Virus record (IMG/VR): IMGVR_UViG_3300029419_000277
DNA: 64,000 nucleotides
Direction: 5' to 3' (one strand)
Source: a virus
Part shown: positions 6,274 to 60,382 of the stretch, one piece after another
How the letters are laid out: each line of letters begins with the position of its first letter
Position numbering within the stretch: position 1 is the stretch's first letter
Notes under the pieces: generated by a model
What the model saw: the letters and a program-made list of their open reading frames with translations, nothing else
Database searches by the model: none
Told to the model about the DNA's origin: nothing
Position numbers and translations under genes: made by a program

Positions 6274-6422
6274 CGGATATCACCCTCTTTCAGGTTGTGA
6301 AGAATAAATCTCCCCATCAATATCTTACCATCAAAGCACGCTTATTTCAAGCGGTCATGCTCTTCTAAAAAAATAATCAACCCCATCAACGCCTTGGAAA
6401 TGATCACCTGTAAATTTTTTCA

Positions 6423-6968: not shown

Positions 6969-7019
6969 AAAACAAAAAAACCCTGCCAGATGCAGCCACA
7001 AAAGCCACACCCGGCAGGG
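6969..7019 (-). terminator. rho-independent terminator downstream of recombinase 2
   Basis: Minus-strand RNA forms CCCTGCC...GGCAGGG stem (plus 6981-6987 / 7013-7019) followed by UUUUUUUGUUUUUU (plus 6969-6980). Confidence 0.6.
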
Positions 7020-7034
7020 TCCTGTCTCCTTTCA

Positions 7035-44622: not shown

Positions 44623-44994
44623 TTATTCCGGCTTCGTTCCGTCATCCATCTGGATGACTGCCATATGCCCGAACATGCTGACGAATACCTCCGGCACCCA
44701 GAAGCGTTGCCTGAATTTCTGGATGAGGTCCTGGGGCAGCTCTGCGAAATCTTCCTCTCCCAATCCGCAGATGAAGAAGTTTCCCTTGATGGGCTGCTCC
44801 AGCTCCGGAATGTACCGGCTGAACGGCTTCTCAGTGAACATCCCATTGTCGTCCGTTACCAGTGCCACGGCATCCGCTTCCCACGGGTACGTGGCTGTGA
44901 TGCGGTCGCAGTCGAGGATGCGGTAGAACTCTTTCAGGGAGTTTTCAATGTCAACCACCTGCGGATGCTCCATCGGTTTGATCAGAAGAACTTT
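44623..44994 (-). CDS. DUF3846 domain protein
   Basis: 123 aa from MKVLLIKPMEHPQVVDIENSLKEFYRIL...; pattern typical of DUF3846 proteins of ICE/phage anti-restriction regions (recalled, not searched); ATGA overlap with the upstream gene. Confidence 0.55.
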   Translation of the reverse strand, partial: KVLLIKPMEHPQVVDIENSLKEFYRILDCDRITATYPWEADAVALVTDDNGMFTEKPFSRYIPELEQPIKGNFFICGLGEEDFAELPQDLIQKFRQRFWVPEVFVSMFGHMAVIQMDDGTKPE

Positions 44995-45461
44995 CATTCG
45001 ACCCAGCCCCCTTTCACGATTGCCCAGTCTGCAAGCTGCATCTTCTGCTGTCCGCCCCATGCAATATCCTCTAACGCTTCCTCCGTTCCGCAGCGGTTGC
45101 AGATCTGGATGTCCGCCCTTCGGCTGAGTGCCTGCTGCTGATGGTCGTAACAGTCCGGCTTTGCTCCGCACCTGGGGCAATGTGGGCCGGTCTGTCGCGT
45201 TTTACCAAGACGGTCAAGCGACACCTTGACCTCGGCTTCCAAAGCCACACGGTGGCAACTGTCCGCGCCGTAGGCAACGTTCAGATGGCTTCCGGTGTCC
45301 CAGCTCACCAAGATGTTTCCGGCATCATCGACCCCGTTGCAGGTTCCCTGCGTTCCGATGGGCGGTGCCTGCCTGTCATCCATCTCATCGAGGACGATCC
45401 GACATCCGACCGGGAACTCTTTTCTCAGCTTCTCGACCGTTTTCTTATCTGCGAAATTCAT
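44994..45461 (-). CDS. DUF4314-like domain protein with C-terminal zinc ribbon
   Basis: 155 aa; MNFADKKTVEKLRKEFPVGCRIVLDEMDDRQAPPIGTQGTCNGVDDAGNILVSWDTGS; CPRCG..CNRCG. Confidence 0.5.
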   Translation of the reverse strand: MNFADKKTVEKLRKEFPVGCRIVLDEMDDRQAPPIGTQGTCNGVDDAGNILVSWDTGSHLNVAYGADSCHRVALEAEVKVSLDRLGKTRQTGPHCPRCGAKPDCYDHQQQALSRRADIQICNRCGTEEALEDIAWGGQQKMQLADWAIVKGGWVE

Positions 45462-45937
45462 GCCTGCACCTCCTCGATCATCCGCTGGGCGGCATCCTTA
45501 TCCATGCATTCCTTCAGCGCACTTTCGAGGATGTGCATCGGGAAGTGGAATGCCTTGTAGCCGTCATGCAGAACTTTGTAGTAATACCGGCTCGGTGCGC
45601 GGTGCCCGAAGTCGTTCTCCATGATGTAGACCATTGCGGTCACCATCTCCGGCTCTGCCCTTTCCCGGAGCAGTTCGATGTTCAGATCTTCCTTGCGGTA
45701 GTAGTTCGGGTAGCCCTCATAGAGGTCGAGGTTTCCTTCGTCTCTTTCCGAGATCTCCCACACCAGAACCGGCGTGTTCTTCTTCGGGTTCGGTGCGATG
45801 GTGGCGCAGCCGCGGAACAAAAGCTCCCAGCCGGCCAGCACCGCCTGCCCTGCAATTTTTGCATCCGGGCATCGGTCTGCCATCTGCTCCACCGACAGGT
45901 TGCTGCCGTAGGCGATGTAATATTTCTTGTTCTTCAT
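45458..45937 (-). CDS. gamma-glutamyl cyclotransferase-like (GGCT/AIG2 fold) protein 1
   Basis: 159 aa from MKNKKYYIAYGSNLSVEQMADRCP; YxAYGSNL motif and downstream LYEGYP with candidate catalytic Glu. Confidence 0.7.
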   Translation of the reverse strand: MKNKKYYIAYGSNLSVEQMADRCPDAKIAGQAVLAGWELLFRGCATIAPNPKKNTPVLVWEISERDEGNLDLYEGYPNYYRKEDLNIELLRERAEPEMVTAMVYIMENDFGHRAPSRYYYKVLHDGYKAFHFPMHILESALKECMDKDAAQRMIEEVQA

Positions 45938-46067
45938 TTGAATCTCTCCCTTCGGTTTTCTCCGCTCTTGTCTGGCGGTATGGTATATATCACTCTTCTG
46001 CCCTGATTTATCAAGGCCGATGAGCATCATATACTGCACAATGTTTTTTGCTTTTGATCGTGTACTC

Positions 46068-46589
46068 TTACATCATCTGCCGCTTCTTCAGATACCGGAT
46101 GGCTTCCGCCCTTCCGATACTGGCTGCCAGTCCACGCTTCAGTGTGTCCTGCGGAAACTCCCAGTCGCTGTATCCGCCCTGCAGCAGTTCAAAATACTCG
46201 GCATCCGGGCATCCAAGCCGCCGGTCCTCGTGCATCACATAAGCGATGCAGGGCTTTGCCTTTTTCATGCGGTTCCCGTTCAGGTTCCAGACCGGAAGCT
46301 GGAACTGCTTCTTGTAGTAGTATCGTGGGCAGCCCTCGTACCGGTCCAGCAGGAGTTCATCGTATTCCGAGAGTTTCCAGACCACCGCAGGTACGCTTTC
46401 ATTGGCATCCTGCTCGATGGTGGCATAGCAGCCGGTCTTGCTCTTTTTGAACAGAAGCCGGTAGCCCTTGATCTCGGTCGTGCCGACCACCACAGCGTAG
46501 GGGCATCTCTTTCCCATCCGCTCCATGTCGAGGTTGCTTCCGTAGGCAAGATAATATCTGGATGGGACTCGGCTGATCAACTCAAACAT
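46068..46589 (-). CDS. gamma-glutamyl cyclotransferase-like (GGCT/AIG2 fold) protein 2
   Basis: 173 aa from MFELISRVPSRYYLAYGSNLDMERMGKRCP; LDRYEGCPRYY; paralog of the previous gene. Confidence 0.7.
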   Translation of the reverse strand: MFELISRVPSRYYLAYGSNLDMERMGKRCPYAVVVGTTEIKGYRLLFKKSKTGCYATIEQDANESVPAVVWKLSEYDELLLDRYEGCPRYYYKKQFQLPVWNLNGNRMKKAKPCIAYVMHEDRRLGCPDAEYFELLQGGYSDWEFPQDTLKRGLAASIGRAEAIRYLKKRQMM

Positions 46590-46818
46590 CTGCCTCACCG
46601 TCCTCCCTGCCAGTGAATTCCACGCCCTGGAAATCCTCTGTCCCAAGCTCGATCTGGCTGTCCTGCCACCAGTCCTCTGCCACACGCTGTGCTTCCTCCA
46701 CGGTCGGCTCTTTCATCTCGGATTCATAAATGGTCACCGTTCTCTGGTAGGTCTCGGTGATGGTCACCTTAAAGGTTCTGCCACCCGGTGTGTTTTCATT
46801 TTTTAACGTGCTTTTCAT
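46582..46818 (-). CDS. small hypothetical protein (78 aa)
   Basis: Intact ORF between the amidoligase-like and GGCT-like genes. Confidence 0.45.
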   Translation of the reverse strand: MKSTLKNENTPGGRTFKVTITETYQRTVTIYESEMKEPTVEEAQRVAEDWWQDSQIELGTEDFQGVEFTGREDGEADV

Positions 46819-46885
46819 AGACCTGCACCTCCTTCTACCACCTCAAGGGCGGTTGCCCGCCCAAAAGGTGCCCGTGCATCCCGGC

Positions 46886-47824
46886 TTATTTGTTCCGCCA
46901 GGATGCGTTGCCCTCCATGTTCCGCAGAAGGATTTCCCTTGCCGTTGCAAATTCATCCCCGATGAATCCCAGCCTCAGCATCCAGCACCGCATCGCATAC
47001 TTTTCATTGTCGGTCTGCTGGGGCTTTGGGCTTGCCGTCCTGACCATCTTGGCAAGCTGGCTCATTGCGAGGCAAAGCTGGATATAGGCTTTCATCTCAC
47101 CGGCGTGCAGTCCGTTGCGCTTTCCGTCCGCTGGGTCTGCGAATTGGAAAAGGCGGAATTCAATGGTCCCTTTTGTAAAGGTGGCATGGAGGTTCAGCAT
47201 ATGGTACCGGCTTGAATTGTAGTGGGCATTCCGGTTTTCCCAGCTGGAACCGTTGCCTTCGTACCAAATGTCTTCCAGCTTGCGCATGGTGGTCGGCTTC
47301 TCGCGGTTCAGCCGGTCGAGGAAGCGATGGTTGACCACCTGGCAATATTGTCCGGTGCGCCCTGCATCGATTCGGATGGCTCTGCCGATCTGCTGTTCGT
47401 GCGCCGCCATGATATTCACAAGGTTGCGGATGGTCTTTGCGGTGTGGTCGCCTTTGCCGATGTGGATGTGAACCCCGCATCCGCGGCTTGGGCCGCTCTT
47501 TGCGCCTGCCTTTCGGAGCAGCCGGATAATCTCCTGCAAGGTTTCGATGTCGTCGTAGGTGAGGATCGGGGTGACCAGTTCGCATTTTTCTGCGTCCGGT
47601 CCGTAGATGCTCACATCCCTCTGGAATTTCCAAACCCTGCCCTGCTGGTCCTTGCAAGCCCAGCTGTAATATCCGTACTCGCCGGCGGCGTTCCATGCTC
47701 TGGTTCCGAAGTACTCGGCGACCTTTCTTGCCGCTTTTTCTCTGGTGATGTTGTTCATCTCGATCTCAACTCCGATGGTCTGGTTCTTCATGGCTTCAAT
47801 CTGCTCTCTTGTTTTATCGTTCAT
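46886..47824 (-). CDS. putative amidoligase-like (Amidoligase_2-type) protein
   Basis: 312 aa from MNDKTREQIEAMKNQ (AAAGGAGAA RBS); GCGVHIHIG His-rich motif; C-terminal NEKYAMRCWMLRLGF shared with the 48057..49244 product; family assignment from memory. Confidence 0.45.
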   Translation of the reverse strand: MNDKTREQIEAMKNQTIGVEIEMNNITREKAARKVAEYFGTRAWNAAGEYGYYSWACKDQQGRVWKFQRDVSIYGPDAEKCELVTPILTYDDIETLQEIIRLLRKAGAKSGPSRGCGVHIHIGKGDHTAKTIRNLVNIMAAHEQQIGRAIRIDAGRTGQYCQVVNHRFLDRLNREKPTTMRKLEDIWYEGNGSSWENRNAHYNSSRYHMLNLHATFTKGTIEFRLFQFADPADGKRNGLHAGEMKAYIQLCLAMSQLAKMVRTASPKPQQTDNEKYAMRCWMLRLGFIGDEFATAREILLRNMEGNASWRNK

Positions 47825-47871
47825 GGTATGTTCTCCTTTGTTTTTTCCTTGTTTTCCCTTTCGGTATGTGC

Positions 47872-47900
47872 ATATTACCGTCAGGTGCGGATAATAGCAA
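47872..47900 (-). promoter_or_regulatory. early promoter-leader cassette copy G
   Basis: atatta 47872-47877; tagcaa 47895-47900; 17-nt spacer; leader as in copy B. Confidence 0.6.
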
Positions 47901-48056
47901 GGATATAAAAGAACATATATTCGACAAATATAAGGCAGAATGATCGTGTACATTTCTGCAGTTTATCCGCTTGATAATGTACATTTTCAGAGCTAATATC
48001 GGTATAATGGAAGAGGGTCTCGCATATTTTCCGGCCCCCATTGGGGGCTTGGGAGC

Positions 48057-49244
48057 TTACGCTCCCGCCTCCAGCATCTGCGCCGTGTCCGCCCCACAGT
48101 CGGGCTGTGTCGGCTGGTTTTCTTCCTGTTCGACCGTTTCCCCTGTGGCAGGATTGCCGTTCTGTGCGGCTTGTTTCGCGGCTTTCAGGGCATCCCGCTT
48201 TGCCTTTTCCCTTGCAAGGAACTTCTGTGCTTCCTCATCCGTGCGGAAAGCCGCATGGCCAGAAAGGTTCTCCATGAGGATCTTGCGTGTTTCCTTGAAA
48301 TCCGGACCGTTCATGCCCAGCCGCAGGAGCCATGTGCGGAGTGCGTATTTCTCATTCTCATCGTTGACATCCTTTGCTTGGATGCGCTTCTGGCTGATAG
48401 CCTGCTGGTTCATCAGCACCGCCAGCTGTGCGAAAGCCGTCAGGTGTTCGTGGTCCGGTGCAGTCGGGAAACCGGTGAAGATGATCTTCTCGGTGGTGAT
48501 CTTCAAGCCTTCCAGTGCAGCACCATGTTCAGTCTCATAGTCGCTGACCGCGTTGATGAAGTTCATGATGGCAAAGGTGCAGCTATCGTCCTTCAGCTTC
48601 TCGACCAGCCCCTCTTCCACATGGAAGTGTCCGCCAGTCGCCTTGCCGATGAGCTTGCCGCGGCTGTAAAGAAGGTTGACCAGGTTGCGGAGAGTCACAC
48701 CATTGTGCTGGCTGACCGGGAATGCAAGTTCCAAGTCCAGCGGCACTTCTTCCGGCTGGTCTTCTGTCTCCTGCCATTCCTCAACTTCTTGCACTTCTGT
48801 TTCCGGCTCATCCTCTGTGGCATCATCCTCAGCCGTATTGTCCGGCTCCGATGCGTCCTCGGCCTCTGCTTCCGCAGGTTCATCTTCTGCGGTATCTGCA
48901 TCTTCGAGTTCCTGCTCGTCCATAACCTCCGGCTCTGCTTCGGTATCTTCGGTCACAGAATCCTCTTCCAAATGGTCGGTCGGCTCCGTGTTTTCCATCT
49001 GGTCATCCGTGCTCTCAATGCTCTCGCCACCGCGGATCAGACCCTCATTCAGCAGGGTCGTCAGCAGCTCGGCATCTGCATTCTCCGGCTCGACCAGAAG
49101 GTTGCCATCCCGGTCGATGGTGTAGCTCCCGATGTCGTAAGAATACAGAGGTGCTTTGGTATAGTAAGGGTGGATGCCGGTCAGCTCCTCAATGCGTTTT
49201 GCGAGGGTCTTGCGCTCGGCTACGTTCAGTTCAAATTTCAACAT
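48057..49244 (-). CDS. amidoligase-like paralog with a ~100-aa poly-acidic insertion
   Basis: 395 aa; GGHFHVEEG and NEKYALRTWLLRLGMNGPDFKETRKILMENLSGHAAFR match the 46886..47824 product; central D/E/T-rich region. Confidence 0.45.
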   Translation of the reverse strand: MLKFELNVAERKTLAKRIEELTGIHPYYTKAPLYSYDIGSYTIDRDGNLLVEPENADAELLTTLLNEGLIRGGESIESTDDQMENTEPTDHLEEDSVTEDTEAEPEVMDEQELEDADTAEDEPAEAEAEDASEPDNTAEDDATEDEPETEVQEVEEWQETEDQPEEVPLDLELAFPVSQHNGVTLRNLVNLLYSRGKLIGKATGGHFHVEEGLVEKLKDDSCTFAIMNFINAVSDYETEHGAALEGLKITTEKIIFTGFPTAPDHEHLTAFAQLAVLMNQQAISQKRIQAKDVNDENEKYALRTWLLRLGMNGPDFKETRKILMENLSGHAAFRTDEEAQKFLAREKAKRDALKAAKQAAQNGNPATGETVEQEENQPTQPDCGADTAQMLEAGA

Positions 49245-49467: not shown

Positions 49468-51726
49468 TTATTCTTCCGGACCTGCGCACCAAGCGATGCC
49501 AGCCAGAACAAAAAATGCGTTGGCTAAACAAATGCCGTTGCCCCAGATACGGTACTCTGCCGAATCCGTATACGGGTCAGCCAGCCATTTCCGGATCTGC
49601 TTCTCCGTTTTCGGCTTCTTGGCATGGGTCACGATCTTGCGATGCGTTTCAAACACATCCGCCCAGAACGCCAGATCTTCTTCGGTCGGATCTTCCGTTC
49701 CAAGATCTCTGCACCACCAGTCCGGAAAGCCCTGCAGTCTGGCGCACTCGGTCGGTGTCAGACGGCGTACAGTGTAAGTCACAGGTGCGGGCTGTGCTTC
49801 CGGATTGTCGATGACCAGACGGTCATTGAAAGCATCCTGCCCGTTGAAGCCGCTGGGATGCGCCCCGGTTGCCACCGTTCCCATGACACCCTCGTTCAGA
49901 TGCGGCACCGGTGCGATGGTGGTCGGGTCTTTGTAATCCCGCGCCATCAGGGTCGGTGCGACTTCTTTTGCCACCTGCATATAGGAGCCGGTGGTCATGG
50001 CATACACATCCTCCGGTGCACAGACCGCATGGCGGTCAGTGGCATCCAGTGTAAAGCAGACATCCTCATTGACGCCATCCCCCTGCGGACCGTTCTCATC
50101 CTTGCGGCCGATCATGTTGCCCTGCAGAACGAAGGTCTGCATCTGATCACTCCGGGTCGCCATCAAAGCGCCGGACTTGCCATGCAGGTCGATCAGCTCA
50201 TTGCGCTGGTTCACATGGAAGGCAGTCACCTCTTCCGGCTGTGCCACAAAGGTCTGCTGCTTCATCCCCGGCTCTGCTGCCAGTGCCGCTGACTTCTCTC
50301 CTAGATCCCGGACTTCATCCCTCTGATTCTGGGTAAAGGCGACCGGCTCTACCACACAGATACCACCCTGATTACAGGTCGGGTCGCCACCACTGCGGTC
50401 CAGTGTCCGGGATGTCTCCGCTTCATAGAAACCGCTGTGCGGATTGTCGGACATCATGGAATGACTGGCTTTAGAGCAGACACCATAACATTTCGGAACG
50501 AACAGTGTCTGATCATTGTTGCAGCCGAGGGTAGCTGACTTTTCTTCCTGCCAGATGGCTCCCTTGCCGCCGCCTTCACACCCGGAACGGATCTTCAGTG
50601 TGACTGCCGGGGAGTTTTCAACTTCTTTCACCGGACTTTCCACTGGATTTTCAACAGCGTCCATGACCATCGGGACATTACCGCCGCCTGTACCGCACCG
50701 GCTTGTCAGTGTCTGTACCTTACCATCCTCGGAAATCTTCACCCGACTGTCAGCAGGATGATTCTCCAGTGCGATGGCAGCAGGCACGACACCAGCCCGG
50801 AGGGTCGGTGACCGCTCTTCCTCGTATCCAATGCTTCTGGCATCTGCGGAATGCTCGGTACAGAAACCGGCGGCTTCCAGAACACAGGGCTGATGCCCAT
50901 GCTCCTCTGCCCGGAGGGTTCCGGTCACATCCTGGGAAACATCCATCTGCTTACCGCCCTGGTCGTTCAGACAGATTCGTCCTCCTGCTCCGCTGAAGCC
51001 TGCCTCTCCAGTGCCGCTTTCAGCACCGGCGGCAGCTCTTTGCCACGCACGGAAGCCCTCCGCAGAATACCGAGACACGCCTTCGGACTCAAATAATATC
51101 TTTGGGGCACTCTGGTCTGCAAAATCTGCGACAAGGTAGATGCGTTTTCTTCTTTGGGGAACGCCCCACCATTGTGCATCAAGAACTCGATATGCGACGC
51201 TCCATCCGTCTCCCACATAGTAGTCGGCGTCTGGCCATCCTTTCTTCTCAGGCGCAGGCACCGTGGCGGCCGGTTCTTTAACACCGATGACGGCTTCGAG
51301 GACTGCTTTGAAGTCCTGTCCTTTGTTTGAGGAAAAGGCCCCTGGCACATTCTCCCACACGATAAATCTTGGTTTTTCTCCATTGGTCTTACACCTCATT
51401 TCCTTCACGATTCGGATTGCTTCGTAAAACAGACTGGACCGTGAACCATCCAGACCGTCCCGCTTACCGGCGATGGACATATCCTGACAGGGACTGCCAA
51501 AGGTGATGATGTCCACTGGCGGCAGGTCCGCACCGCTGATGGCAGATACATCTCCGTAATGCTTCACCTGCGGCAGACGCTTCGTCGTGACCCGGATGGC
51601 AAACGGCTCGATCTCACTGCTCCACACAGGAGTGATCTGCCCGGTTAAAAGACCGCCCAATGGAAAACCCCCGGAGCCATCGAAGAGGCTGCCGAGGGTC
51701 AAAGTCTTATTCTGTTCTGTGCTCAT
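49468..51726 (-). CDS. DNA (cytosine-5)-methyltransferase with an extended variable region (possibly multispecific)
   Basis: 752 aa; motifs I (LFDGSGG), IV (GSPCQDMS), VI (ENVPG), VIII (QRRKR), then ~380 aa of variable region before RRLTPTECARLQGFPDWW (IX/X). Confidence 0.85.
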   Translation of the reverse strand: MSTEQNKTLTLGSLFDGSGGFPLGGLLTGQITPVWSSEIEPFAIRVTTKRLPQVKHYGDVSAISGADLPPVDIITFGSPCQDMSIAGKRDGLDGSRSSLFYEAIRIVKEMRCKTNGEKPRFIVWENVPGAFSSNKGQDFKAVLEAVIGVKEPAATVPAPEKKGWPDADYYVGDGWSVAYRVLDAQWWGVPQRRKRIYLVADFADQSAPKILFESEGVSRYSAEGFRAWQRAAAGAESGTGEAGFSGAGGRICLNDQGGKQMDVSQDVTGTLRAEEHGHQPCVLEAAGFCTEHSADARSIGYEEERSPTLRAGVVPAAIALENHPADSRVKISEDGKVQTLTSRCGTGGGNVPMVMDAVENPVESPVKEVENSPAVTLKIRSGCEGGGKGAIWQEEKSATLGCNNDQTLFVPKCYGVCSKASHSMMSDNPHSGFYEAETSRTLDRSGGDPTCNQGGICVVEPVAFTQNQRDEVRDLGEKSAALAAEPGMKQQTFVAQPEEVTAFHVNQRNELIDLHGKSGALMATRSDQMQTFVLQGNMIGRKDENGPQGDGVNEDVCFTLDATDRHAVCAPEDVYAMTTGSYMQVAKEVAPTLMARDYKDPTTIAPVPHLNEGVMGTVATGAHPSGFNGQDAFNDRLVIDNPEAQPAPVTYTVRRLTPTECARLQGFPDWWCRDLGTEDPTEEDLAFWADVFETHRKIVTHAKKPKTEKQIRKWLADPYTDSAEYRIWGNGICLANAFFVLAGIAWCAGPEE

Positions 51727-52496
51727 GCGGAAGCCTCCTCTCCGAGCATCTGCTCATTTGCTTTCCGGTAAAAATCTCTGGACACTTCAAATCCATAGCT
51801 GTTGCGCCCCAGTTCTCTTGCTGCTCTCAGCGTGGAGCCGCTGCCGGCGCAGGGGTCAATGACCACATCGCCCTCATCTGTAAAGGTCTCGATCAGTCGT
51901 TTCAGCACAGAGATCGGCTTCTGGGAGGGATGGATCTTCGGATATTCCTTGCCATCCCGCTTCCAGTCAAACCAGTTGAAGATCATGTGGGGCTTTCCGT
52001 CCTCACCGAGATTGCGGAACTTCGGGAGCTTGCCCCGATACAGAACCAGCGCATACTCCGTTGCACCTACGATCTTCATGTTGGCCTTTAAGACCTGCGG
52101 ACTGTAGTTCTTGCAGAACACCAGCGGGATATAATTCTTGAAGCCGTATTTTTCCGCTTCGGTGATCACCTTCGGGATCTGCTGGAACGCACAGAACACG
52201 ATCATGCACGGCGCATCCTTCTCTCCTGTGCCGGGTTCTTTCTTCAGCAGGCGGTTGCAGAAGTGGAAATACTCTGCAATGTTGAACGTGAAGTCGGTAT
52301 TGAACGCCGCCTTCCTCGCCTTTCTGCTCTCCCCGTTTTTGTTGTCGCCATCCACATACCAGTCCGGCCGGCTGGCGTAGAAGTCCGTACCGATGTTGTA
52401 CGGAATATCTGCGATCACCAGCTGTGCCTTGGGGATGTTATAGGACTTGAAGTTCTGGAAGTTGTCGTGGATGAGGACGCATTTCACATCAGGCAT
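51723..52496 (-). CDS. N6-adenine/N4-cytosine DNA methyltransferase (beta-class)
   Basis: 257 aa; DIPY (DPPY-type) motif then HPSQKP and VIDPCAGSGST. Confidence 0.8.
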   Translation of the reverse strand: MPDVKCVLIHDNFQNFKSYNIPKAQLVIADIPYNIGTDFYASRPDWYVDGDNKNGESRKARKAAFNTDFTFNIAEYFHFCNRLLKKEPGTGEKDAPCMIVFCAFQQIPKVITEAEKYGFKNYIPLVFCKNYSPQVLKANMKIVGATEYALVLYRGKLPKFRNLGEDGKPHMIFNWFDWKRDGKEYPKIHPSQKPISVLKRLIETFTDEGDVVIDPCAGSGSTLRAARELGRNSYGFEVSRDFYRKANEQMLGEEASA

Positions 52497-53757
52497 CGGT
52501 ATCCTCGCTTTCCGGCTCGAAGGTCGCTACTTCCTCGAACTTCAGTTTCTGGCCGTCACGGATGACATACACATCATCGAAGTGACCATCATTGTGTTCG
52601 ATGTACCGCTTCACGATTACATCCACAAACTTCGGGTCCAGCTCGATACCCCGGCACACACGGTCGGTCTCTTCACAGGCGATCAGGGTCGAGCCGCTTC
52701 CAAGGAACGGATCAAGGACGATGCCGTTGGTCATGGTTGAATTGCGGATCGGATAGCTCATCAGACCGATGGGCTTCATGGTCGGATGGTCCTTGTTGGA
52801 CTTCGGCCGGTCATACTCCCAGATGGTCGTCTGCTTGCGGTCGGAATACCACTGGTGCTTCCCCTTCTGCTTCCAGCCGTAGAGACACGGTTCGTGCTGC
52901 CACTGGTAAGGACTGCGGCCCAGCACCAGCGCATTCTTCTTCCAGATACAGCACCCGGACAGGTAGAACCCGGCATCCTTGAATGCCTTTCTAAAGTTCA
53001 GCCCTTCCGTATCTGCATGGAAGATGTAGATGGAACCGTCGTCTGAAAGATGGTCGTGCATCTGCTGGAACGCTGCCAGCAGGAACTGGTAGAATTCCGA
53101 ATCGCCCATATTGTCATTCATGATCTTACCGGCAGTCTCTTCCACATCCACGTTATAAGGGGGATCGGAAAGGACCAGATTTGCCTTGGTTCCGTCCATC
53201 AGGGTGTCGTAGCATTCTGCTTTGGTGGAATCACCGCACAGAACGATGTGCTTTCCCAGATGCCAGAGGTCACCATCTTTGGAAAAGCATGGCTGCTTCA
53301 GCTCGGATTCCACATCGAAGTCATCTTCCTTGACCTCTTTGCTGTGGACTTTGTTGAACAGCGTCTCAATCTCCGGCGGCTCAAAGCCGGTCTTACCAAG
53401 GTCGAAGTTGGAATCCTCGATGTCCTTCAAAAGATCAGCCAGCAGAGAATCATCCCATGCACCCGTAATCTTATTGAGCGCAATGTTCAGGGCTTTCTCC
53501 CTGGTCTTGTCGATGTCCACCACCGCACAAGGCACTTCGGTGTAGCCCAGCTCCATCGCTACGGTCAATCTCTGGTGGCCGCCGATGATTGTCATATCGG
53601 CATTGACCACCAAAGGATCTGCGAACCCGAACTCCGTGATGGAGTTCTTGATCTTCTCGTACTCTTTATCCCCCGGCTTCAGCTTCTTCCGGGGATTGTA
53701 TGCGGCCGGCTTGAGTACGGACACCGGCAGCATCTTCAGTTCAGCAGTCGCTTTCAT
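52489..53757 (-). CDS. ParB-like nuclease domain fused to an N6/N4 DNA methyltransferase
   Basis: 422 aa from MKATAELKMLPVSVLKPAAYNPR (AGGAGGAG RBS); ParB/Srx N-domain; SDPPYNV, HPTMKP, VLDPFLGSGST. Confidence 0.8.
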   Translation of the reverse strand: MKATAELKMLPVSVLKPAAYNPRKKLKPGDKEYEKIKNSITEFGFADPLVVNADMTIIGGHQRLTVAMELGYTEVPCAVVDIDKTREKALNIALNKITGAWDDSLLADLLKDIEDSNFDLGKTGFEPPEIETLFNKVHSKEVKEDDFDVESELKQPCFSKDGDLWHLGKHIVLCGDSTKAECYDTLMDGTKANLVLSDPPYNVDVEETAGKIMNDNMGDSEFYQFLLAAFQQMHDHLSDDGSIYIFHADTEGLNFRKAFKDAGFYLSGCCIWKKNALVLGRSPYQWQHEPCLYGWKQKGKHQWYSDRKQTTIWEYDRPKSNKDHPTMKPIGLMSYPIRNSTMTNGIVLDPFLGSGSTLIACEETDRVCRGIELDPKFVDVIVKRYIEHNDGHFDDVYVIRDGQKLKFEEVATFEPESEDTDA

Positions 53758-53779
53758 GTAGGCTCCTCCTAATTCAGAT

Positions 53780-53998
53780 TCACATGCGCATGACCCCGGA
53801 GAAGGGCACGAAAAAGGAGCCGAACAAAAAGCCCGACTCCATTTCATCTCCATCTTCCTGCGGCTGTTCAGCCATCTCGCACCATTCCGGTTTTTCCCCG
53901 TTCACAGATGCCAGCACCTTATCTTCCGCATCGTCAATCGCATGTACACAGATACCCCCGGTGTTGAACATCGGAAACATACCGATAATCTTACTCAT
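53780..53998 (-). CDS. small hypothetical protein (72 aa)
   Basis: Start MSKIIGMF with GAAGGGAG 9 nt upstream. Confidence 0.45.
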   Translation of the reverse strand: MSKIIGMFPMFNTGGICVHAIDDAEDKVLASVNGEKPEWCEMAEQPQEDGDEMESGFLFGSFFVPFSGVMRM

Positions 53999-54485
53999 CC
54001 TCATCCACTCCCTTCATCCCGTATCGATAATCCCAGTAACAATTCAGACTGCAAAACTTCCGCTGCCGTTTTCCTTCATCTACGGCATGGAACTCCCTTC
54101 CACAGTTTTTACAGACCGCGATCCGAAAAGACTTATGCTGCCTGTAATATTCCTCCCGGCAAGCTGGAGAACAGAACCGTCTCCGACCACTGTTCCCTCT
54201 CTGCACGAGAATCCGTCCGCACACTGGACAGCGCCGTTCCCCCGACCCATCCGGTGGCTGTAACTGGCAGCTCCCCGTTTCCGGCAGGCCCAGTTCCCGG
54301 CAGTAATCCGTGACCTGTTCCAAAGAAAGCCCGGTGTTTTCTGCGATCTCCACACATCCAAACCCGGCAAGCCGCTGGCTTCGGACTTCTTCTCTCTCCG
54401 GGCGGTACTCATAGCCCTCAAACACACAGTCCAGCCGGACACCGTTCTTTACCACATCACGCTCTATGTTCAGCGGTCCTTCCAT
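53991..54485 (-). CDS. sigma-70 region-4-like HTH protein with two C-terminal zinc ribbons
   Basis: 164 aa; HTH RLAGFGCVEIAENTGLSLEQVTDYCRELGL; zinc ribbons CPVCGR..RRRFCSPAC and CKNCGREF..RKFCSLNC. Confidence 0.5.
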   Translation of the reverse strand: MEGPLNIERDVVKNGVRLDCVFEGYEYRPEREEVRSQRLAGFGCVEIAENTGLSLEQVTDYCRELGLPETGSCQLQPPDGSGERRCPVCGRILVQRGNSGRRRFCSPACREEYYRQHKSFRIAVCKNCGREFHAVDEGKRQRKFCSLNCYWDYRYGMKGVDEDE

Positions 54486-54777
54486 TTGCATCGCCCTCCT
54501 TCCAGCGTCCTTTGTTTGCACAGGCACGGCTGCAATATTTCCGTTCCAGACCATACTGGTGCCGGTAGGAAAACTCCCTGCCGCACACCGGACAGATCTT
54601 TGACCGCACGGTCTTCCAGTTCTCTGGTTTCGGGTGGGTGTTGTTCCACCGTGACCGGCATTCCGGTGAGCAGAACTTCCGTGGTCTGCCTTTATGGTTT
54701 GGTACGATTGCCGTACCGCACTGAGGGCAGAAGGAAAAAGCCATGTCCCTGATCATCTCAGCCGTGTAATCTTCCAT
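54457..54777 (-). CDS. tandem zinc-ribbon protein (same CxxCG...RKFCSxxC motif)
   Basis: 106 aa; CPQCG..RPRKFCSPECR and CPVCGREF..RKYCSRAC. Confidence 0.5.
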   Translation of the reverse strand: MEDYTAEMIRDMAFSFCPQCGTAIVPNHKGRPRKFCSPECRSRWNNTHPKPENWKTVRSKICPVCGREFSYRHQYGLERKYCSRACANKGRWKEGDANGRTAEHRA

Positions 54778-55177
54778 CTGCCCTCACCTCACTCTCATTT
54801 TTCGCCGTTTCTTCGGCGGTTTCTTAGAAAAATCTCATAATTCATGCGAAAAGCGGCGAAGTGGAAATCGGCACTGCCCCGCCAAGTTGGATCGTTGTTG
54901 CGGCGGCCGATTCCCGCTCGCCCCTGCTCCTCCCGGAACAAGCTAAAATGTGCGAAAGCTCCCTGTTTACGAGAGGTTTCACACACTTTGGTTCATTTCG
55001 GGGAAAAAGAATGGCACCGGAACGAAAGCTCCGATGCCTGTACATTTTCCTGTTTCATTTTGCGCCGTTATTCCTCTGACCCCCGGCCTATGAATTTTGC
55101 GGTTTTTCACGCAAAAGGGGCCACCGGTCTCCGTGTGACTTCACTGTAGAGAAGTGACCCCGGCCCCGGTGGGGGTG

Positions 55178-55537
55178 TCAGTAGGTGTAGGTCGGGTTGA
55201 TGTCCTCGGTCAGCGTCTTCTTATCGTGGCAGCTCTTACAGAGCGACTGCCAGTTGTTCTGGTCCCAGAAAAGTTTCTGGTCACCACGGTGCGGAATGAT
55301 GTGATCCACCACCGTTGCCCGGACGTACTTGCCTTGCTTGGCACACTGCACACAGAGCGGATGTGCTTCCAGATACGACTTTCTGGCTTTCTGCCACCGT
55401 CTGTTGTATCCACGCTTCGCTGCCGGACGGGTGACTTCCGGGTGGAGAGGCAGGTGCTTCTCACAGTAGAGCCGGCCGGCTTCCACCAGCTCCGGGCAGC
55501 CGGGATGACGGCACGGTGTCTTTGGTCTGTACGGCAT
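55178..55537 (-). CDS. HNH endonuclease
   Basis: 119 aa; CVQC..DHIIPHRGD..LFWDQNNWQSLCKSCHDKKT. Confidence 0.8.
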   Translation of the reverse strand: MPYRPKTPCRHPGCPELVEAGRLYCEKHLPLHPEVTRPAAKRGYNRRWQKARKSYLEAHPLCVQCAKQGKYVRATVVDHIIPHRGDQKLFWDQNNWQSLCKSCHDKKTLTEDINPTYTY

Positions 55538-55540
55538 GGG

Positions 55541-56608
55541 TCAGTCCTCCCACGGAAGACCAGCCTTGCCGAAGTGACCGTAAGCACAGACCTTGTTGTA
55601 ATCTACATCCAGCAGTCCCAGCCGCTTGATGATACCCTGCGGGGTCAGGTCGTAGCTGTCATGGACGTAGGCTTCGATGAAGTCAAGGGACTGGTGATCC
55701 GTACCGAAGCACTCCACCAACACACCCACCGGCTGTACCACACCAATGGCGTAGGCCAGCTGGACTTCACACTTGTCAGCGTAGCCCGCCTGCACGATGT
55801 CCTTTGCAATCTTCCGTGCCATGTAAGCTGCGGAGCGATCTACCTTGGTGGGGTCTTTCCCACTCAGCGCACCACCGCCCATGCGACCGATGCCACCGTA
55901 GGTATCGCACGCCAGCTTCCGGCCAGTCACACCACAGTCGGCATAGCTGCCGCCCAGCACGAAACGACCGGTCGGATTAACCAGCTTCGTGAAGTCACCA
56001 TCCAGACCGTACTCGCAGGCGGCCAGCACCATCATGGATTCGATGATATGCCGGAAGTCGCTGACCTCCACATCCGGGCTGTGCTGCACGGAGCAGAGGA
56101 AGGTGGTGATTCGGCCGGTGTCGTAATCGTAGCTGACCTGCGCCTTGGCATCTGCTCGGAACATCTTGGACGGATGGTTCTTCAGCAGCTGCAGGAACTT
56201 GGTGGCAACCATGTACGGGATTGGCATCTGCTCTGCTGTCTCGTTGGTGGCGTAGCCATACATGATGCCCTGGTCACCGGCACCGCCCTTGTCCACACCC
56301 AGTGCAATGTCCGGGGACTGCTTGTCCACCAGAATGCCGATGCGAAGAAGCTCGGTCAGGTTCCACCCCAGCTTTTCGGCGCCGATGCGATTGAACACAT
56401 CATGGACGATCTGGTTGTAGTTTGGCCGGTAGTCGGTGGTGACCTCGCCGGCAATAAAGAGCTGGCTCTTTTTCAGCAGACACTCGATCGCCACACGGGC
56501 GTGCCCGTCATGCTGAAGAATGTCGGTCACAATAGCATCTGCGATCTGGTCACAGATCTTATCAGGATGGCCATTGCTGACCTGTTCACAGGTGATAATC
56601 TTACTCAT
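55541..56608 (-). CDS. metK: S-adenosylmethionine synthetase (methionine adenosyltransferase)
   Basis: 355 aa; GHPDKICDQIADAI, GAGDQGIMYGYA, DTYGGIGRMGGGALSGKDPTKVDRSAAYMARKIAKD motifs. Confidence 0.85.
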   Translation of the reverse strand: MSKIITCEQVSNGHPDKICDQIADAIVTDILQHDGHARVAIECLLKKSQLFIAGEVTTDYRPNYNQIVHDVFNRIGAEKLGWNLTELLRIGILVDKQSPDIALGVDKGGAGDQGIMYGYATNETAEQMPIPYMVATKFLQLLKNHPSKMFRADAKAQVSYDYDTGRITTFLCSVQHSPDVEVSDFRHIIESMMVLAACEYGLDGDFTKLVNPTGRFVLGGSYADCGVTGRKLACDTYGGIGRMGGGALSGKDPTKVDRSAAYMARKIAKDIVQAGYADKCEVQLAYAIGVVQPVGVLVECFGTDHQSLDFIEAYVHDSYDLTPQGIIKRLGLLDVDYNKVCAYGHFGKAGLPWED

Positions 56609-56728
56609 GTTCTGTCCTCTCTTTCATGTATCACAAAGCAGGCCGCCTTTGCCCTTGCCCACAAATAGGCTCCCACAAAAGCGGCCTGCGATGTTCCATT
56701 GTGTAGTTCCAATGTGTCCTCTGAATCT

Positions 56729-57085
56729 GTTGCTGGTGTGTTGCTGGCGCTTTCCTCACAAAGCGAGGTGTCCAGTCCCCAAAAATATTGATTTTACGCA
56801 CTTTTCAGGGGTGTTAAGATCTATATTTTTTCTTTTGTTGCTATTGTTGCTAGTAAAAAGTAAATAGTATATAAAAGAAAATAATATAAATAAAATAGGG
56901 TTTTCACTCGCAACACTCGCAACAGCACCGAAAGCCCTTGATTTTCCTACGTTTTTCTGTTGCTGGGGCGTTGCTGCTGTTGCTGGTAACGTGACTCCGA
57001 AGCCGTGTGTTGCTGGAATTTTGGCAGGAACTTATGAAAATCAAAAACAATAGATTTCACTGTGTTCTTCCAGCAACAGCCGCAA
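56729..57085. repeat. iteron array (GTTGCTGG and variants, direct and inverted) with an AT-rich tract: putative replication origin
   Basis: GTTGCTGG at 56729, 56740, 56959, 56979, 57009; GTTGCTGC at 56970; TTGCTA x2 at 56838-56853; inverted CCAGCAAC / CGCAAC at 56909-56930 and 57070-57088; 80-bp AT-rich stretch 56820-56900; lies between metK and the primase gene. Confidence 0.5.
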
Positions 57086-57114
57086 CAAATCCGTCCGTAC
57101 CTTGAATTTCAAGC

Positions 57115-59526
57115 TCATGATGTCAATGGTGCAAAGTCCTCTTTTGATTCTTCACTTGCCGTGAACGCCACATCCAGGACCATCGGAGTCGTACTGCTGG
57201 AGGCACCGTCATTCGGACGCTTTCTTGCAGTCTTGTACCGCTTTTCAATCTCCTGGTTTAGATTCTTGGCTACCTCTGCCCGGTAGCCATTCTCTCCACA
57301 CCACTCTTTGTAGCGTGTGTAAACTGCACCGCGCCGAAGCTCACACCCTTCCTTTTCTTCAATGCATTCATCAAAAAACTGACCCATCTTATCTGAGAAT
57401 ATCTGATAGTCCGTTGTTGCCTGAACGACAGAATCCGGCATGGCAAGTCCCTGACTGCGGAACAGCTTATAGCCTTCGAGCATCCAGTTCAGAATGCCGG
57501 ACATATTTTCCGGTTTAGCAAAAGTGGACTTTAGATCCTTATCCTGTTCATTTTCTTCAAAATGCCGGTCAAACGGAATGATTTTGATTCGGCCAGACTC
57601 AAACAGCGTAAGGTCTGTGATATTCGGACGATGGTTCGTGTTGATGAAAATTTTGAAGTTCGGTCGGAACTCAAAACTGTTCTCATGCAGATACCGGGCT
57701 GTGATCGTATCGTTACCGGTCAGTCGTTTGGTAAGAGCTGCATCCAGAGTGATCTTTTTCTCCGGCTCGGAGATGTTTACAAAACGAGAGCCGGCAAGCC
57801 GGGCGATTTCCTCAGACGGTCCTCCGCTCTGGCTGTTAAACTTCGCCTGCAGCATGGTCGGATCTGCATTTTTACCGTACTCGCCCATAATACGCAGAAT
57901 ACTCTCCATTGTGGTACCCTTACCGTTTCTGGATGTCGGACCGTACAGAATAAACAAGCACTCCATGCGGGTGTCACCAGTCAACGAGTATCCGATAGCC
58001 TTCTGAAGATAGTCTGCTCTGGCCTTATCCCCCTGCATGATCTCCGTGATGAACGTCCGCCAGCGAGGGCAGTCGGCATCCGGGGCATATATCACAGGGG
58101 ACACTTTTGTGAGAAAATCCTCCGGGCGGTGTTCCCGGAATTCCATCGTCCGCAGATCCAGTGTTCCATTTTTGCAGTTGAACAGATAGATATCCTGATC
58201 GTACTGCTTCATGGACAGTGGGAATACGGACTTCGCGTCTTTCAGCATCGTGTCACGGTGCTTGCGTTGCTGGAGTTTCCGGACGCGGTCGATGAACCGC
58301 TTTCTGACATCCTCTTCTGTAATCTTCAATGCAAACAGATACAGCTTATCTGCCAGATATTTCGCAAGCTCTGCCACCTTAAGGTTCTCCATATCTGGCT
58401 GCCAGACAACTCCATCATAGACAAACCAGATGCCGCGTTCACTGTTGTACCGTGCGATAGGCTTGAAAAAATCGGCGAACATGTTGCCCAAACCGATCTC
58501 ATCCCTGCCGTAGCGCGGATTCGTGTGCGGAGCCATTTCTTCCAGCGACAGCGTGAGCTTGCTGATGTCCGGTGGCCGCTCCGCCTCTTTATCATCAGAG
58601 TCAAGATTTGCAAACTCCTCATCCACAATGTCCTGCGCGTTGACAGGAATGTAAACGGAAGCGCAGGTATTGACCGTGTTACGGATAGAGATTGCACCGT
58701 AGGTCGAACCAGCCTGTTTGCGATCCCACTTCGGGCGCATCAAGCCCGATGTACGGAAGATGCGGTCCATCTGCTCCTCATCACAGCCGCACCAGAATGC
58801 CAGGATAGACAAGAGTGCCATATCTGCATCCGACTGGCTGCCGTAGAGGTCTTCCCACTCACCGGCAAAGAGCTTTTTGAACTTTTCAGAGTTACTGGCC
58901 TCGTTAGCGTGTGTGATGACAGCCTCATCCTCCAGATACGAATGGTGCTGAAAATGAGTCTGCTGTACCTGTTTGTTCCGCTTCATGAGCGTATCGAGCA
59001 GTGTGGTCATCGCCGTTTCATCGTTGGGAATTTCACCTGTGCGGTAAACATCTCCCGTTACGGTGACGAAGCGGTTTGTCGCACCGGGCATATACACTTC
59101 CAGACCTTTGCCACGGTTGTTGATGTAGTAGACCGTCTTGTCGTAGACGTAGTCTTCTGGCACATGGAAGAATCCACGCAGACCTTTGCCGGACGGTGAC
59201 TTCTCTACATACGCTGTAGGAAAGATTGAAAGTACAGTGTCTGCTGTGTCATTCAGCGTCCCGTCCTCACGGATACAGTGGTCGATGTCAAAAGCTCCGA
59301 TACCACTGCCCACAGCAATGCCGATGCCGTCATAGCCGCCCATTGCATAAGTGACAAGCGTAGTCTTGAAATCTGCAAAGGTGCGGAGATCATTGATCCT
59401 GGCTCTATCACCATTCGCCGGGTTATACGGCATCTTGGTCTTCTGACCGTTTCGCTTTTCAAATTTCCAGACACAAAACCGGCAGGAGGTCTTCAGCTCC
59501 GCCGGGATATTTTTGATATCCACCAT
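57115..59526 (-). CDS. primase-helicase: N-terminal prim-pol domain fused to a P4/D5-type SF3 helicase
   Basis: 803 aa; prim-pol DxD (IGAFDIDHC); Walker A GPTSRNGKGTT; P4-family C-terminal region. Confidence 0.85.
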   Translation of the reverse strand: MVDIKNIPAELKTSCRFCVWKFEKRNGQKTKMPYNPANGDRARINDLRTFADFKTTLVTYAMGGYDGIGIAVGSGIGAFDIDHCIREDGTLNDTADTVLSIFPTAYVEKSPSGKGLRGFFHVPEDYVYDKTVYYINNRGKGLEVYMPGATNRFVTVTGDVYRTGEIPNDETAMTTLLDTLMKRNKQVQQTHFQHHSYLEDEAVITHANEASNSEKFKKLFAGEWEDLYGSQSDADMALLSILAFWCGCDEEQMDRIFRTSGLMRPKWDRKQAGSTYGAISIRNTVNTCASVYIPVNAQDIVDEEFANLDSDDKEAERPPDISKLTLSLEEMAPHTNPRYGRDEIGLGNMFADFFKPIARYNSERGIWFVYDGVVWQPDMENLKVAELAKYLADKLYLFALKITEEDVRKRFIDRVRKLQQRKHRDTMLKDAKSVFPLSMKQYDQDIYLFNCKNGTLDLRTMEFREHRPEDFLTKVSPVIYAPDADCPRWRTFITEIMQGDKARADYLQKAIGYSLTGDTRMECLFILYGPTSRNGKGTTMESILRIMGEYGKNADPTMLQAKFNSQSGGPSEEIARLAGSRFVNISEPEKKITLDAALTKRLTGNDTITARYLHENSFEFRPNFKIFINTNHRPNITDLTLFESGRIKIIPFDRHFEENEQDKDLKSTFAKPENMSGILNWMLEGYKLFRSQGLAMPDSVVQATTDYQIFSDKMGQFFDECIEEKEGCELRRGAVYTRYKEWCGENGYRAEVAKNLNQEIEKRYKTARKRPNDGASSSTTPMVLDVAFTASEESKEDFAPLTS

Positions 59527-59531
59527 AGCGG

Positions 59532-60182
59532 TTAGACCTCCTTCCTGCCGTGTACAGCGTTGCTGCCGTAATTGGCATTGCTGCCGCGCACAGCATTTTC
59601 GTCTGTATTTTGTTTGTTTTTCTTAGTACTGTGCATATCAAACTGCCTTGCCACAGCCTGTTCAATCTCCTGCTTTTTCTCAGCAGAGATCACCCTGCAA
59701 AGGCGTCCAAACAGTGCCGACTGGTCGATCGTTGTGATCTGCTCGACCAGCAAAATGGAATCCTCCAGTCGTTCCGCTCTGAGCATCTCACAATGTGCTT
59801 CTGTCAGCACGATATGTGTTGGCAGGTCGAGCTTTTTCATCTTGCTCGTAAGCGGAATAACTGTGAAGGTCTGCGAATAACGGTTCGCAATATCGTTTGT
59901 CAGGATCAGCACCGGACGGTTCCCACTCTGCACACAGGTGCCATAATGGTTACCAAGTTCTGCAAACCAGATCTCATACTGCTTCGGGATTCTGGTCGTC
60001 GGCCAGTTGTAAGCGGGGAAGCTGTCATAAGTTGTGTGGCTGCTTTCCTGCTGCTTTTCGGTGCTGTGGTTATGCGTGGCGGCGCTTTTATGCTTGGTGC
60101 AGCCACGCTTGTTGATGTACTTGTTCACATGGATCTTCCTGCCGCGCGGCAGAATCCGTGCGTTGCTTTTCTTTCTCCCCAT
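59532..60182 (-). CDS. MazF/PemK/EndoA-family endoribonuclease-like protein with a basic N-terminal extension
   Basis: 216 aa from MGRKKSN (GAGGTGA RBS); core EIWFAELGNHYGTCVQSGNRPVLILTNDIANRYSQTFTVIPLTSKMKKLDLPTHIVL..SILLVEQITTIDQSAL closely parallels Bacillus EndoA/NdoA. Confidence 0.65.
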   Translation of the reverse strand: MGRKKSNARILPRGRKIHVNKYINKRGCTKHKSAATHNHSTEKQQESSHTTYDSFPAYNWPTTRIPKQYEIWFAELGNHYGTCVQSGNRPVLILTNDIANRYSQTFTVIPLTSKMKKLDLPTHIVLTEAHCEMLRAERLEDSILLVEQITTIDQSALFGRLCRVISAEKKQEIEQAVARQFDMHSTKKNKQNTDENAVRGSNANYGSNAVHGRKEV

Positions 60183-60382
60183 TCTGGGTTTCACCTCTTC
60201 TCTCCTGATACAAAAACAGCCGTCCGGAATCCGAATCCGTGACGGCACAACATGTAAAAAGCGGATAAAAATTCTGGGCAGCTTTCGCTCCCAGCACTCT
60301 TATCCACTCCCGGTTTTATCTTATTTTCCTAGTATAAAGTATAGCAAAAAGCCGATGTACGCATAAGAATCAATTTTCCTAA

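Follow-up and report, generated by a model that had tools for sequence, protein, structure and literature searches.

What use would a phage have for three DNA methyltransferases (MTases), an S-adenosylmethionine (SAM) synthetase and an HNH nuclease encoded within 7 kbp of each other? The question is raised by positions 49468-56608 of a 64,000-nt window, the whole stretch of DNA analyzed here, from the IMG/VR virus record IMGVR_UViG_3300029419_000277. A preliminary description had named these five genes and taken them for an anti-restriction block. All five were found where it had placed them, on the minus strand and with strong domain matches, and its observation is confirmed. Its interpretation is partly supported: the main idea, self-methylation with a local SAM supply, is reasonable but already published, being the explanation in print for the same block (PMC4260502, PMC11283538). 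The best explanation of the whole, to which we assign a probability of about 0.62, is a methylation module directed against restriction, with MetK as the source of SAM and the HNH protein serving in DNA packaging. The block itself adds one member to a published phage module, and the part of interest is its C5 cytosine MTase.

The window represents a human-gut temperate tailed phage or prophage. Its long open reading frames (ORFs) are all on the minus strand. The structural genes encode an HK97-type capsid, a ClpP-like protease, portal, TerL, a P27-family TerS, tail proteins, and a lysin, and the replication genes, which also include one for a MazF/PemK-like protein, encode an SNF2 helicase and a primase-polymerase/D5 helicase. 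The presence of an HK97-type head, tail, lysin, serine recombinases, and replication genes therefore indicates a temperate tailed phage or prophage. A protein identical to the C5-MTase occurs on at least 24 contigs; the three listed are from ENA metagenome assemblies, one of them named human gut, and one contig of 0.2-1 Mb suggests a prophage inside a chromosome. The block is the DNA-methylation segment of a conserved module lying between the replication and the terminase genes. This module belongs to widespread temperate tailed phages of Firmicutes, namely the Ca. Heliusvirales-type gut phages and the Phi1207.3/phiStag1-type streptococcal prophages.

In phiStag1_20280_6_181, the order is SF3 helicase, VRR-NUC, SNF2, metK, HNH, small DNA-binding protein, ParB-type MTase, and dcm, followed by Nmad4, DUF4314, TerS(P27), TerL, and portal. 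Identities to the window proteins are 58% for MetK, 56% for HNH, 69% for the ParB-MTase, 66% for TerS, 77% for TerL, 55% for portal, and 57% for SNF2. The Evtepia phage NatCom_11697 (Ca. Heliusvirales) is fully collinear with the window from SNF2 to TerL (SNF2 56%, MazF 35%, MetK 61%, HNH 66%, ParB-MTase 68%, amidoligase 58%, TerS 71%, TerL 83%) and has in common with it MazF, the metK-HNH pair, the ParB-MTase, the C5 slot, an acidic protein, the amidoligase, gamma-glutamyl cyclotransferase (GGCT), and DUF4314. The core of the C5-MTase is only 29%-30% identical to those of phiStag1 and NatCom_11697, against 55%-83% for the neighboring genes. The idea that the window is not Heliusvirales-like, suggested by best TerL matches to streptococcal Javan phages, was overturned by the TerL identity and the collinearity with NatCom_11697.

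The likeness to the Phi1207.3/phiStag1-type prophages covers the order primase/D5, SNF2, metK, HNH, small DNA-binding protein, ParB_N-MTase, and C5-MTase, continues through DUF4314, TerS(P27), TerL, portal, ClpP, and capsid, and extends to three serine recombinases. On the other hand, the C5-MTases of these prophages have 388-426 aa (that of phiStag1 with 29% core identity to the window enzyme), no counterpart of the 257-aa MTase or of the amidoligase and GGCT genes is listed in the Phi1207.3 and phiStag1 records, and the hosts are streptococci (S. pyogenes and S. agalactiae) and not Clostridia of the gut. NatCom_11697 differs in having a 432-aa protein in the C5 slot, while other members of Ca. 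Heliusvirales have long multi-cassette C5 enzymes with different cassette sets. In its gene table, the Phi1207.3 paper of 2014 lists the same order together with three serine recombinases, and it names MetK as a possible source of methyl groups for the C5 methylase (PMC4260502). In the Heliusvirales paper (de Jonge et al. 2024), C5-MTase and MetK, present in 67% and 58.9% of genomes, respectively, are the commonest auxiliary genes and are interpreted as evasion of restriction-modification; the architecture of the methylase was not analyzed (PMC11283538). The block is thus not new but a module conserved in a phage lineage that is already known, and the idea that MetK feeds the methylases was published in 2014 and 2024.

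A check for loss of catalytic motifs found them kept in MetK, the C5-MTase, and both amino-MTases. The claim of three MTases lacking a recognized restriction partner is supported: Pfam, PHROGs, and PADLOC revealed no restriction enzyme among the flanking genes, with the reservation that unannotated small ORFs could hide a novel restriction enzyme fold. No restriction endonuclease domain occurs in the neighbors, which comprise the zinc-ribbon proteins, the small ORF, the acidic protein, and the amidoligase. The gene of the ParB-fused MTase overlaps that of the 257-aa MTase by 8 nt, and the latter overlaps the C5-MTase gene by 4 nt; therefore, the three genes look like one translationally coupled operon.

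The C5-MTase has one catalytic core, in which each motif is present once: FDGSGG (aa 15-20), PCQ (79-81), ENV (125-127), QRRKR (191-195), RLTPTEC (655-661), and GNG (729-731). Motifs I-VI occupy aa 10-142, motif VIII aa 176-202, and motif IX aa 652-671. The variable region between motifs VIII and IX is about 450 aa long, compared with about 100 aa in M.HhaI and about 180 aa in M.SPbetaI. Nine cassettes of 35-49 aa, designated M1 to M9 (Table 1), were recognized in it, following the pattern of a hydrophobic strand, a loop, (S/P/x)-T/A-L, a second loop, and another hydrophobic strand. The enzyme matches the PADLOC "orphan methyltransferase" model PDLC03715 (719 positions) with E = 2e-279, and the family has therefore already been catalogued. 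No paper on the architecture or specificity of multi-cassette C5-MTases of gut phages was found in the literature.

The preliminary description had proposed that the long variable region holds multiple target-recognition domains (TRDs), and comparison of relatives supports this, since the region behaves like an array of exchangeable modules, with indels and shuffled order. The set of close homologues comprised more than 8000 proteins. Those about 90% identical to the window enzyme range from 706 to 825 aa in length and differ by clean indels of 30-40-aa cassettes, and most of the inserts contain a T-L/I-type motif of their own; a natural variant of 710 aa lacks M7, and one of 821 aa has two additional cassettes. 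Direct repeats of 12 nt, located exactly 117 nt apart, bracket M7 and match a 39-aa indel, an arrangement that suggests recombination between cassette boundaries as the route by which M7 is lost or gained. A search with the variable region only, against 1.84 billion representatives at E <= 1e-3, yielded 3890 related clusters at 50% identity. Among the 139 distant relatives with at least three recognizable cassettes, 47 have a cassette order different from that in the window. In 25 full-length representatives, a median of only 46% of the variable region can be assigned to cassettes or linkers of the window enzyme, and in the three representatives inspected, the remainder contains further TL-type units of other kinds. 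In two relatives, additional inserts unmatched by any segment of the window enzyme interrupt or adjoin the cassette array, one of about 80 aa in P0239 (aa ~420-500; helix-turn-helix-like by eye) and one of about 240 aa in P0130 (aa ~172-413), after motif VIII.

Within the array, an ungapped window scan revealed M6 and M7 as the only clear paralogues and a weak similarity of M1 and M9, and a BLASTP self-comparison of the variable region gave no internal match. Such scant similarity would be expected if the units recognize different targets. M8 (NEDVCFTLDATDRHAV) is significantly similar (z = 4.7, none of 500 shuffles scoring as high) to the TL/TV unit at the C-terminal end of the SPbeta MTase (NGEPAFTVNTIDRHGV), and just as close to the corresponding element of the phiStag1 Dcm protein.

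The known enzymes of this design are the multispecific C5-MTases of temperate Bacillus phages, M.SPRI, M.Phi3TI, M.SPbetaI, M.H2I, and M.phiBssHII (Trautner laboratory; PMC12707154). The window enzyme resembles them in having one core and an enlarged VIII-IX region with tandem T-L/V modules, in being phage-borne and orphan, and in modules that can be added and removed, in its family seen by comparison, as natural indels and reordering. It differs in the core, only 24% identical to that of M.SPbetaI, and in the number of units, since the characterized Bacillus enzymes have two to five specificities, while nine cassettes are present here and more in some relatives. M.phiBssHII has five specificities. 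Judging from its sequence and those of its relatives, the window C5-MTase is probably multispecific to some degree; nine or more independent cassette specificities on one core are a tentative proposition, which we consider possible but rather doubtful. The modular C5-MTase, the one unusual part of the block, is a credible extension of the Bacillus phage design.

The other two MTases both show the beta-class motif order. In the ParB_N-fused enzyme, GGHQR was found and DPPY (230-233) precedes FLGSG (383-387), and in the 257-aa enzyme, DIPY (aa 30-33) precedes GSGST (218-222). The closest solved structures are those of the adenine MTase 5HEK/5HFJ for the MTase domain of the former and 5HFJ/5HEK for the latter; both are probably N6-adenine MTases. 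The ParB-MTase most likely starts at 53757 and has 422 aa, because this start agrees with homologues, with a GGAGG sequence 7 nt upstream, and with gene calls on identical metagenome contigs. The fusion is a recognized architecture, known as phrog_498 and from the Wolbachia WO prophage and orf32 of Phi1207.3. No separate orthologue of the 257-aa MTase was found in phiStag1 and NatCom_11697, where the sole match was the MTase domain of their ParB-MTase. Comparable orphan amino-MTases of prophages are M.EcoGII, M.CsaIII, and M.BceSVII, which are believed to stay silent in the lysogen and to shield DNA that leaves the cell (PMC3526280, PMC5778455). M.EcoGII is of the beta class, like both window enzymes, but has 349 aa, with no additional domains reported and ParB unmentioned in its paper (PMC5778455). 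M.EcoGII as an example of a ParB fusion was dropped on the basis of this report.

The metK gene is complete, as had been claimed. MetK has all three SAM synthetase domains and retains the catalytic and ligand-binding motifs GHPDK, GAGDQG, DAK, DTYGG, and GKDPTKVDRS. Residues 4-354 align to residues 5-369 of E. coli MetK (E = 3e-92), and its difference in length from the 384-aa host-type enzyme is fully accounted for by small deletions in loops and the loss of about 14 aa at the C terminus. It belongs to phrog_1569 (E = 2e-133), a PHROG of its own for this compact type; the compact MetK was found in 129 deposited phage records, of which 90 are streptococcal. The claim that metK lacks an S-box leader also held. 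An Rfam scan of the window at gathering thresholds detected neither an S-box nor any other family, and the six weak matches at E <= 10 in the region 54500-57300 around metK included no SAM riboswitch. A demonstration of a phage MetK as an anti-defense factor was not found in the literature. Prophages of H. pylori were considered as metK carriers and dropped, the gene there being the chromosomal one that flanks the insertion site. In deposited NatCom phage records the metK orthologue is labeled "peptidase" (e.g., PV036427, 8998-10044), which looks like an annotation error. NatCom_11393 (6982-7611) and Javan105 (5981-6649) encode, directly upstream of the ParB-MTase, a weakly MetK-like "hypothetical protein" of 260 aa with 25%-27% identity to MetK over about 270 aa (E ~1e-10); this protein, in a similar slot, possibly derives from MetK by truncation or divergence.

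The HNH gene begins 3 nt past the metK stop codon. Its product carries two CxxC pairs and the HNH core, and its sole relative in the PDB is the HNH protein of phage GVE2 (5H0M), with residues 1-110 aligned to residues 1-124 over the full length. GVE2 HNH and gp74 of HK97 work together with terminase. The pairing of metK with HNH is seen again in streptococcal as well as gut phages, and the related phages examined have P27-type terminases. The preliminary description had counted the HNH protein among the anti-restriction components. Because of the full-length likeness to GVE2 HNH and the place beside metK in relatives, it is more likely a packaging cofactor, and we consider it probably terminase-associated. 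The similarity to the GVE2/HK97 gp74 type includes the small size and, in the setting, an HK97-type head module and a P27-type TerS; the difference is that the window gene is coupled to metK, far from terS. The ORFs tested between the MTases and the P27-type terS included no further HNH.

Taken together, these genes could operate as follows. During lytic growth, the three coupled MTases would modify replicated phage DNA ahead of packaging, and progeny DNA would therefore reach the next host already shielded from many restriction systems. The C5 enzyme would broaden this protection by means of nine TL-centered recognition cassettes on one core, like the tandem TRDs of Bacillus enzymes, and the cassettes would be gained, lost, and reshuffled between phage variants. 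The phage MetK, lacking host-type S-box control, may raise the SAM supply to meet the methylation load, and the HNH protein would act as a nicking cofactor of the P27-type terminase. What the analysis establishes are the gene identities, the intact motifs, the absence of a recognized restriction enzyme and of an S-box, the synteny, and the modularity of the cassettes; the timing of expression, the methylation activity, the number of specificities, the boost in SAM, and the part played by HNH in packaging are inferred. Prophage methylases have been described as silent in the lysogen and acting on exit, and multi-TRD enzymes are known from Bacillus phages (PMC12707154, PMC5778455, PMC3526280); the proposed lytic methylation matches this published account.

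If each cassette is a working recognition domain, the C5 family would amount to a combinatorial collection of m5C specificities provided by nature. Both the 752-aa enzyme and the relatives of 700-970 aa would then be hyper-multispecific, with more targets than any characterized methylase, and cassette shuffling at the population level would give Heliusvirales-type phages an unusually broad host range. These phages are reported as the most prevalent viral cluster of the human gut. Multispecificity could help explain their reported wide host range and the finding of CRISPR spacer matches for <4% of Heliusvirales-type viral operational taxonomic units. The cassettes would also be ready-made parts for engineering of methylase specificity and for passing restriction barriers in hard-to-transform gut Firmicutes.

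Several results weigh against this explanation. In the C5-MTase, M8 alone is significantly similar to an SPbeta unit; M3 compared with the other unit is marginal (z = 2.9), and the other seven cassettes gave nothing. The adjacencies M1-M2 (52), M2-M3 (36), and M4-M5 (34) are frequent in relatives, so some cassettes may each form only one half of a larger TRD, which could bring the number of functional domains to fewer than nine. When the variable region by itself was compared with PDB sequences, nothing matched at E <= 10, and the AlphaFold2 model of the enzyme was unusable (mean pLDDT 29.4, pTM 0.25; shallow alignment of 28 near-identical homologues). The HNH gene lies 14.6 kb upstream of terS instead of adjoining it. 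A strong terminator-like hairpin (dG -25.2 kcal/mol, z = -4.56, equally stable shuffles 0/200) is predicted to part metK-HNH from the MTases, which speaks against their assumed co-expression; therefore, the claim of a single transcription unit for metK and the MTases was not borne out. In phiStag1, the interval from HNH to the following gene yielded no terminator-like hairpin, and the transcript boundary in the window is therefore not a conserved feature. Finally, deletion and complementation of the endonuclease-metK region of the S. agalactiae prophage 12/111phiA altered aggregation, glycocalyx, and biofilm (PMC8223999), and this effect on the host suggests expression in the lysogen.

The C5 results could also mean that the variable region is one large DNA-binding scaffold of beta-hairpin-like repeats with a single, relaxed, or non-specific cytosine specificity. 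This would agree with the preferred adjacencies and with the eight of nine cassettes without significant similarity to an SPbeta unit, and promiscuous adenine methylases of prophages do exist (M.EcoGII, M.CsaIII, and M.BceSVII; PMC3526280, PMC5778455). However, near-identical natural variants cleanly gain or lose single cassettes, the permuted order in a third of the relatives (47/139) is hard to square with one cooperative fold, and each unit has a TL core of its own, as in the tandem TRDs of Bacillus phage enzymes; we regard a single scaffold as unlikely. It is improbable that the methylases serve to mark the phage's own DNA for packaging or replication timing, like Dmt of P1 at pac, instead of evading restriction. 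Such a role would fit the position of the block immediately upstream of the packaging genes and its conservation together with them, the ParB_N fusion, which suggests loading at particular places on DNA, and the requirement of P1 for Dam-type methylation at pac (PMC12707154). Yet the C5 slot is the most variable in the module, as its core identities demonstrate, and the shuffling of cassettes is in keeping with an arms race against the diverse restriction systems of hosts and not with a fixed signal internal to the phage.

For metK, the phenotypes of 12/111phiA (PMC8223999) and the hairpin that sets metK-HNH apart from the methylases in the window raise the alternative of a gene mainly for lysogenic conversion, acting through SAM pools, aggregation, and biofilm, with an incidental link to the methylases. 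We hold it to be decidedly unlikely, considering that metK adjoins methylase genes in the lineages examined, that HNH follows it so closely, and that its location between replication and packaging genes, on one strand, is not a typical moron position. The preliminary description had also suggested protection from SAM-depleting host defenses. The idea that MetK offsets SAM depletion, by host defense or by the SAM lyase of a competing phage, has general logic in its favor, as the SAMase of T3 both breaks down SAM and inhibits the MetK of the host (PMC12707154, bioRxiv 10.1101/2023.02.27.530186). But what the literature reports is phage-encoded SAM degradation and MetK inhibition, and the literature consulted describes no host defense acting by SAM depletion; restriction by BREX and Type I systems itself depends on SAM (PMC12707154), so extra SAM would rather help them, and the window shows no sign of a SAM-depleting system. 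This role is highly improbable. As for the HNH protein, the tight pair that it forms with metK in many phages, along with weak PADLOC matches to the HNH domains of ZorE and PtuB (E ~2e-4), could point to a homing or selfish endonuclease mobilizing metK, or to a nuclease against host or competitor DNA. The PADLOC matches are marginal, while the best ones are to the small phage HNH family phrog_144 (1e-38) and, over the full length, to GVE2 HNH, and the tested ORFs between the methylases and terS hold no other HNH; a selfish or attacking nuclease thus appears quite improbable. The methylation module against restriction, with SAM supply and a packaging HNH, remains the preferred explanation.

Table 1. 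Genes, C5-MTase cassettes, and terminator-like hairpin of the methylation block (positions in the 64,000-nt window)
Feature	Position	Strand	Matches and remarks
metK, class I S-adenosylmethionine synthetase, 355 aa, compact phage type	55541..56608	-	PF00438, PF02772, PF02773
HNH endonuclease, 119 aa	55178..55537	-	PF01844 E = 5e-10; phrog_144 E = 1e-38
Terminator-like hairpin followed by T-run, downstream of HNH	55013..55038	-	11-bp stem, 7 G-C pairs
106-aa protein with two CxxC...(R/K)(K/R)(F/Y)CS zinc-ribbon units	54457..54777	-	phrog_2308 E = 8e-18; weak zinc-ribbon Pfam matches only
Second zinc-ribbon protein, ORF of 187 aa	53991..54554	-	phrog_2308 E = 3e-23
Small ORF, 72-74 aa	53780..54004	-	no Pfam/PHROG match; 72 aa called on identical metagenome contigs
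ParB_N-fused beta-class amino-MTase	52489..53757 (ORF to 53853)	-	PF02195 + PF01555; phrog_498 E = 1e-187
Beta-class amino-MTase, 257 aa	51723..52496	-	PF01555 E = 8e-25
C5 cytosine MTase, 752 aa, one catalytic core	49468..51726	-	PF00145 E = 1e-41
C5 variable region, aa 203-650 (448 aa), nine TL/AL-centered cassettes	49777..51120	-	cassette pattern
Cassette M1	50866-50973	-	
Cassette M2	50761-50865	-	
Cassette M3	50653-50760	-	
Cassette M4	50494-50610	-	
Cassette M5	50347-50493	-	
Cassette M6	50239-50346	-	
Cassette M7	50122-50238	-	
Cassette M8	50014-50121	-	
Cassette M9	49909-50013	-	

A spacer of 400 nt, which holds the hairpin at 55013-55038, follows HNH and separates metK-HNH from the genes on the MTase side. 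The 106-aa zinc-ribbon protein is 31%-38% identical to the proteins in the same position in phiStag1 and NatCom_11697. The second zinc-ribbon protein probably starts at 54485 and has 164 aa, the length called on identical contigs; it is 35% identical to an "HTH" protein of phiStag1. A second terminator-like hairpin (53816-53840, minus strand), with a 10-bp stem followed by a T-run, was found inside the small ORF, upstream of the ParB-MTase start.

Between the C5-MTase and the terminase genes, a cluster at 44994-49244 encodes an acidic 395-aa protein, Amidoligase_2, a DpnD/PcfM-like protein of 78 aa, two GGACT proteins, which are the gamma-glutamyl cyclotransferases, and DUF4314; gene calls on an identical contig added a DUF3846 protein beside the latter. 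Of these, the amidoligase, GGCT, and DUF4314 genes have the same order in NatCom_11697. The acidic protein (48057-49244) and the amidoligase (46886-47953) both match phrog_2443 and have a common C-terminal domain of about 80 aa with the motif NEKYA[LM]R.W[LM]LRLG. In NatCom_11393 and Javan105, the matching sequence was found inside a small gene just after the C5-MTase, which in Javan105 is labeled "virulence-related protein."

Three large serine recombinases with Resolvase and Recombinase domains are encoded at the left end of the window (1596-3428, 7035-9335, and 9370-11730), and between them are genes for an AAA_25 ATPase (3439-4419) and a protein of the PD-(D/E)XK transposase family (5467-6273). 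Two giant proteins of the tail region, of 768 aa (14741-17047) and 1101 aa (17184-20489), terminate in GDSL lipase/acylhydrolase domains and could be receptor-modifying or depolymerase-type tail enzymes. In the ORF at 59532-60248, listed with 238 aa, the PemK/MazF toxin domain is confined to aa 89-203, and the N-terminal part may be an over-extension of the ORF; no antitoxin partner was identified for it. NatCom_11697 has a MazF-like gene at the same place. The spacer between the primase/helicase stop codon and metK (56609-57114) contains, at 56728-57078, six of the seven exact copies of CCAGCAACA in the window, one of them inverted. These copies surround an AT-rich stretch at ~56840-56900, an arrangement that looks like iterons plus an unwinding element and makes this spacer a candidate phage replication origin or operator array.

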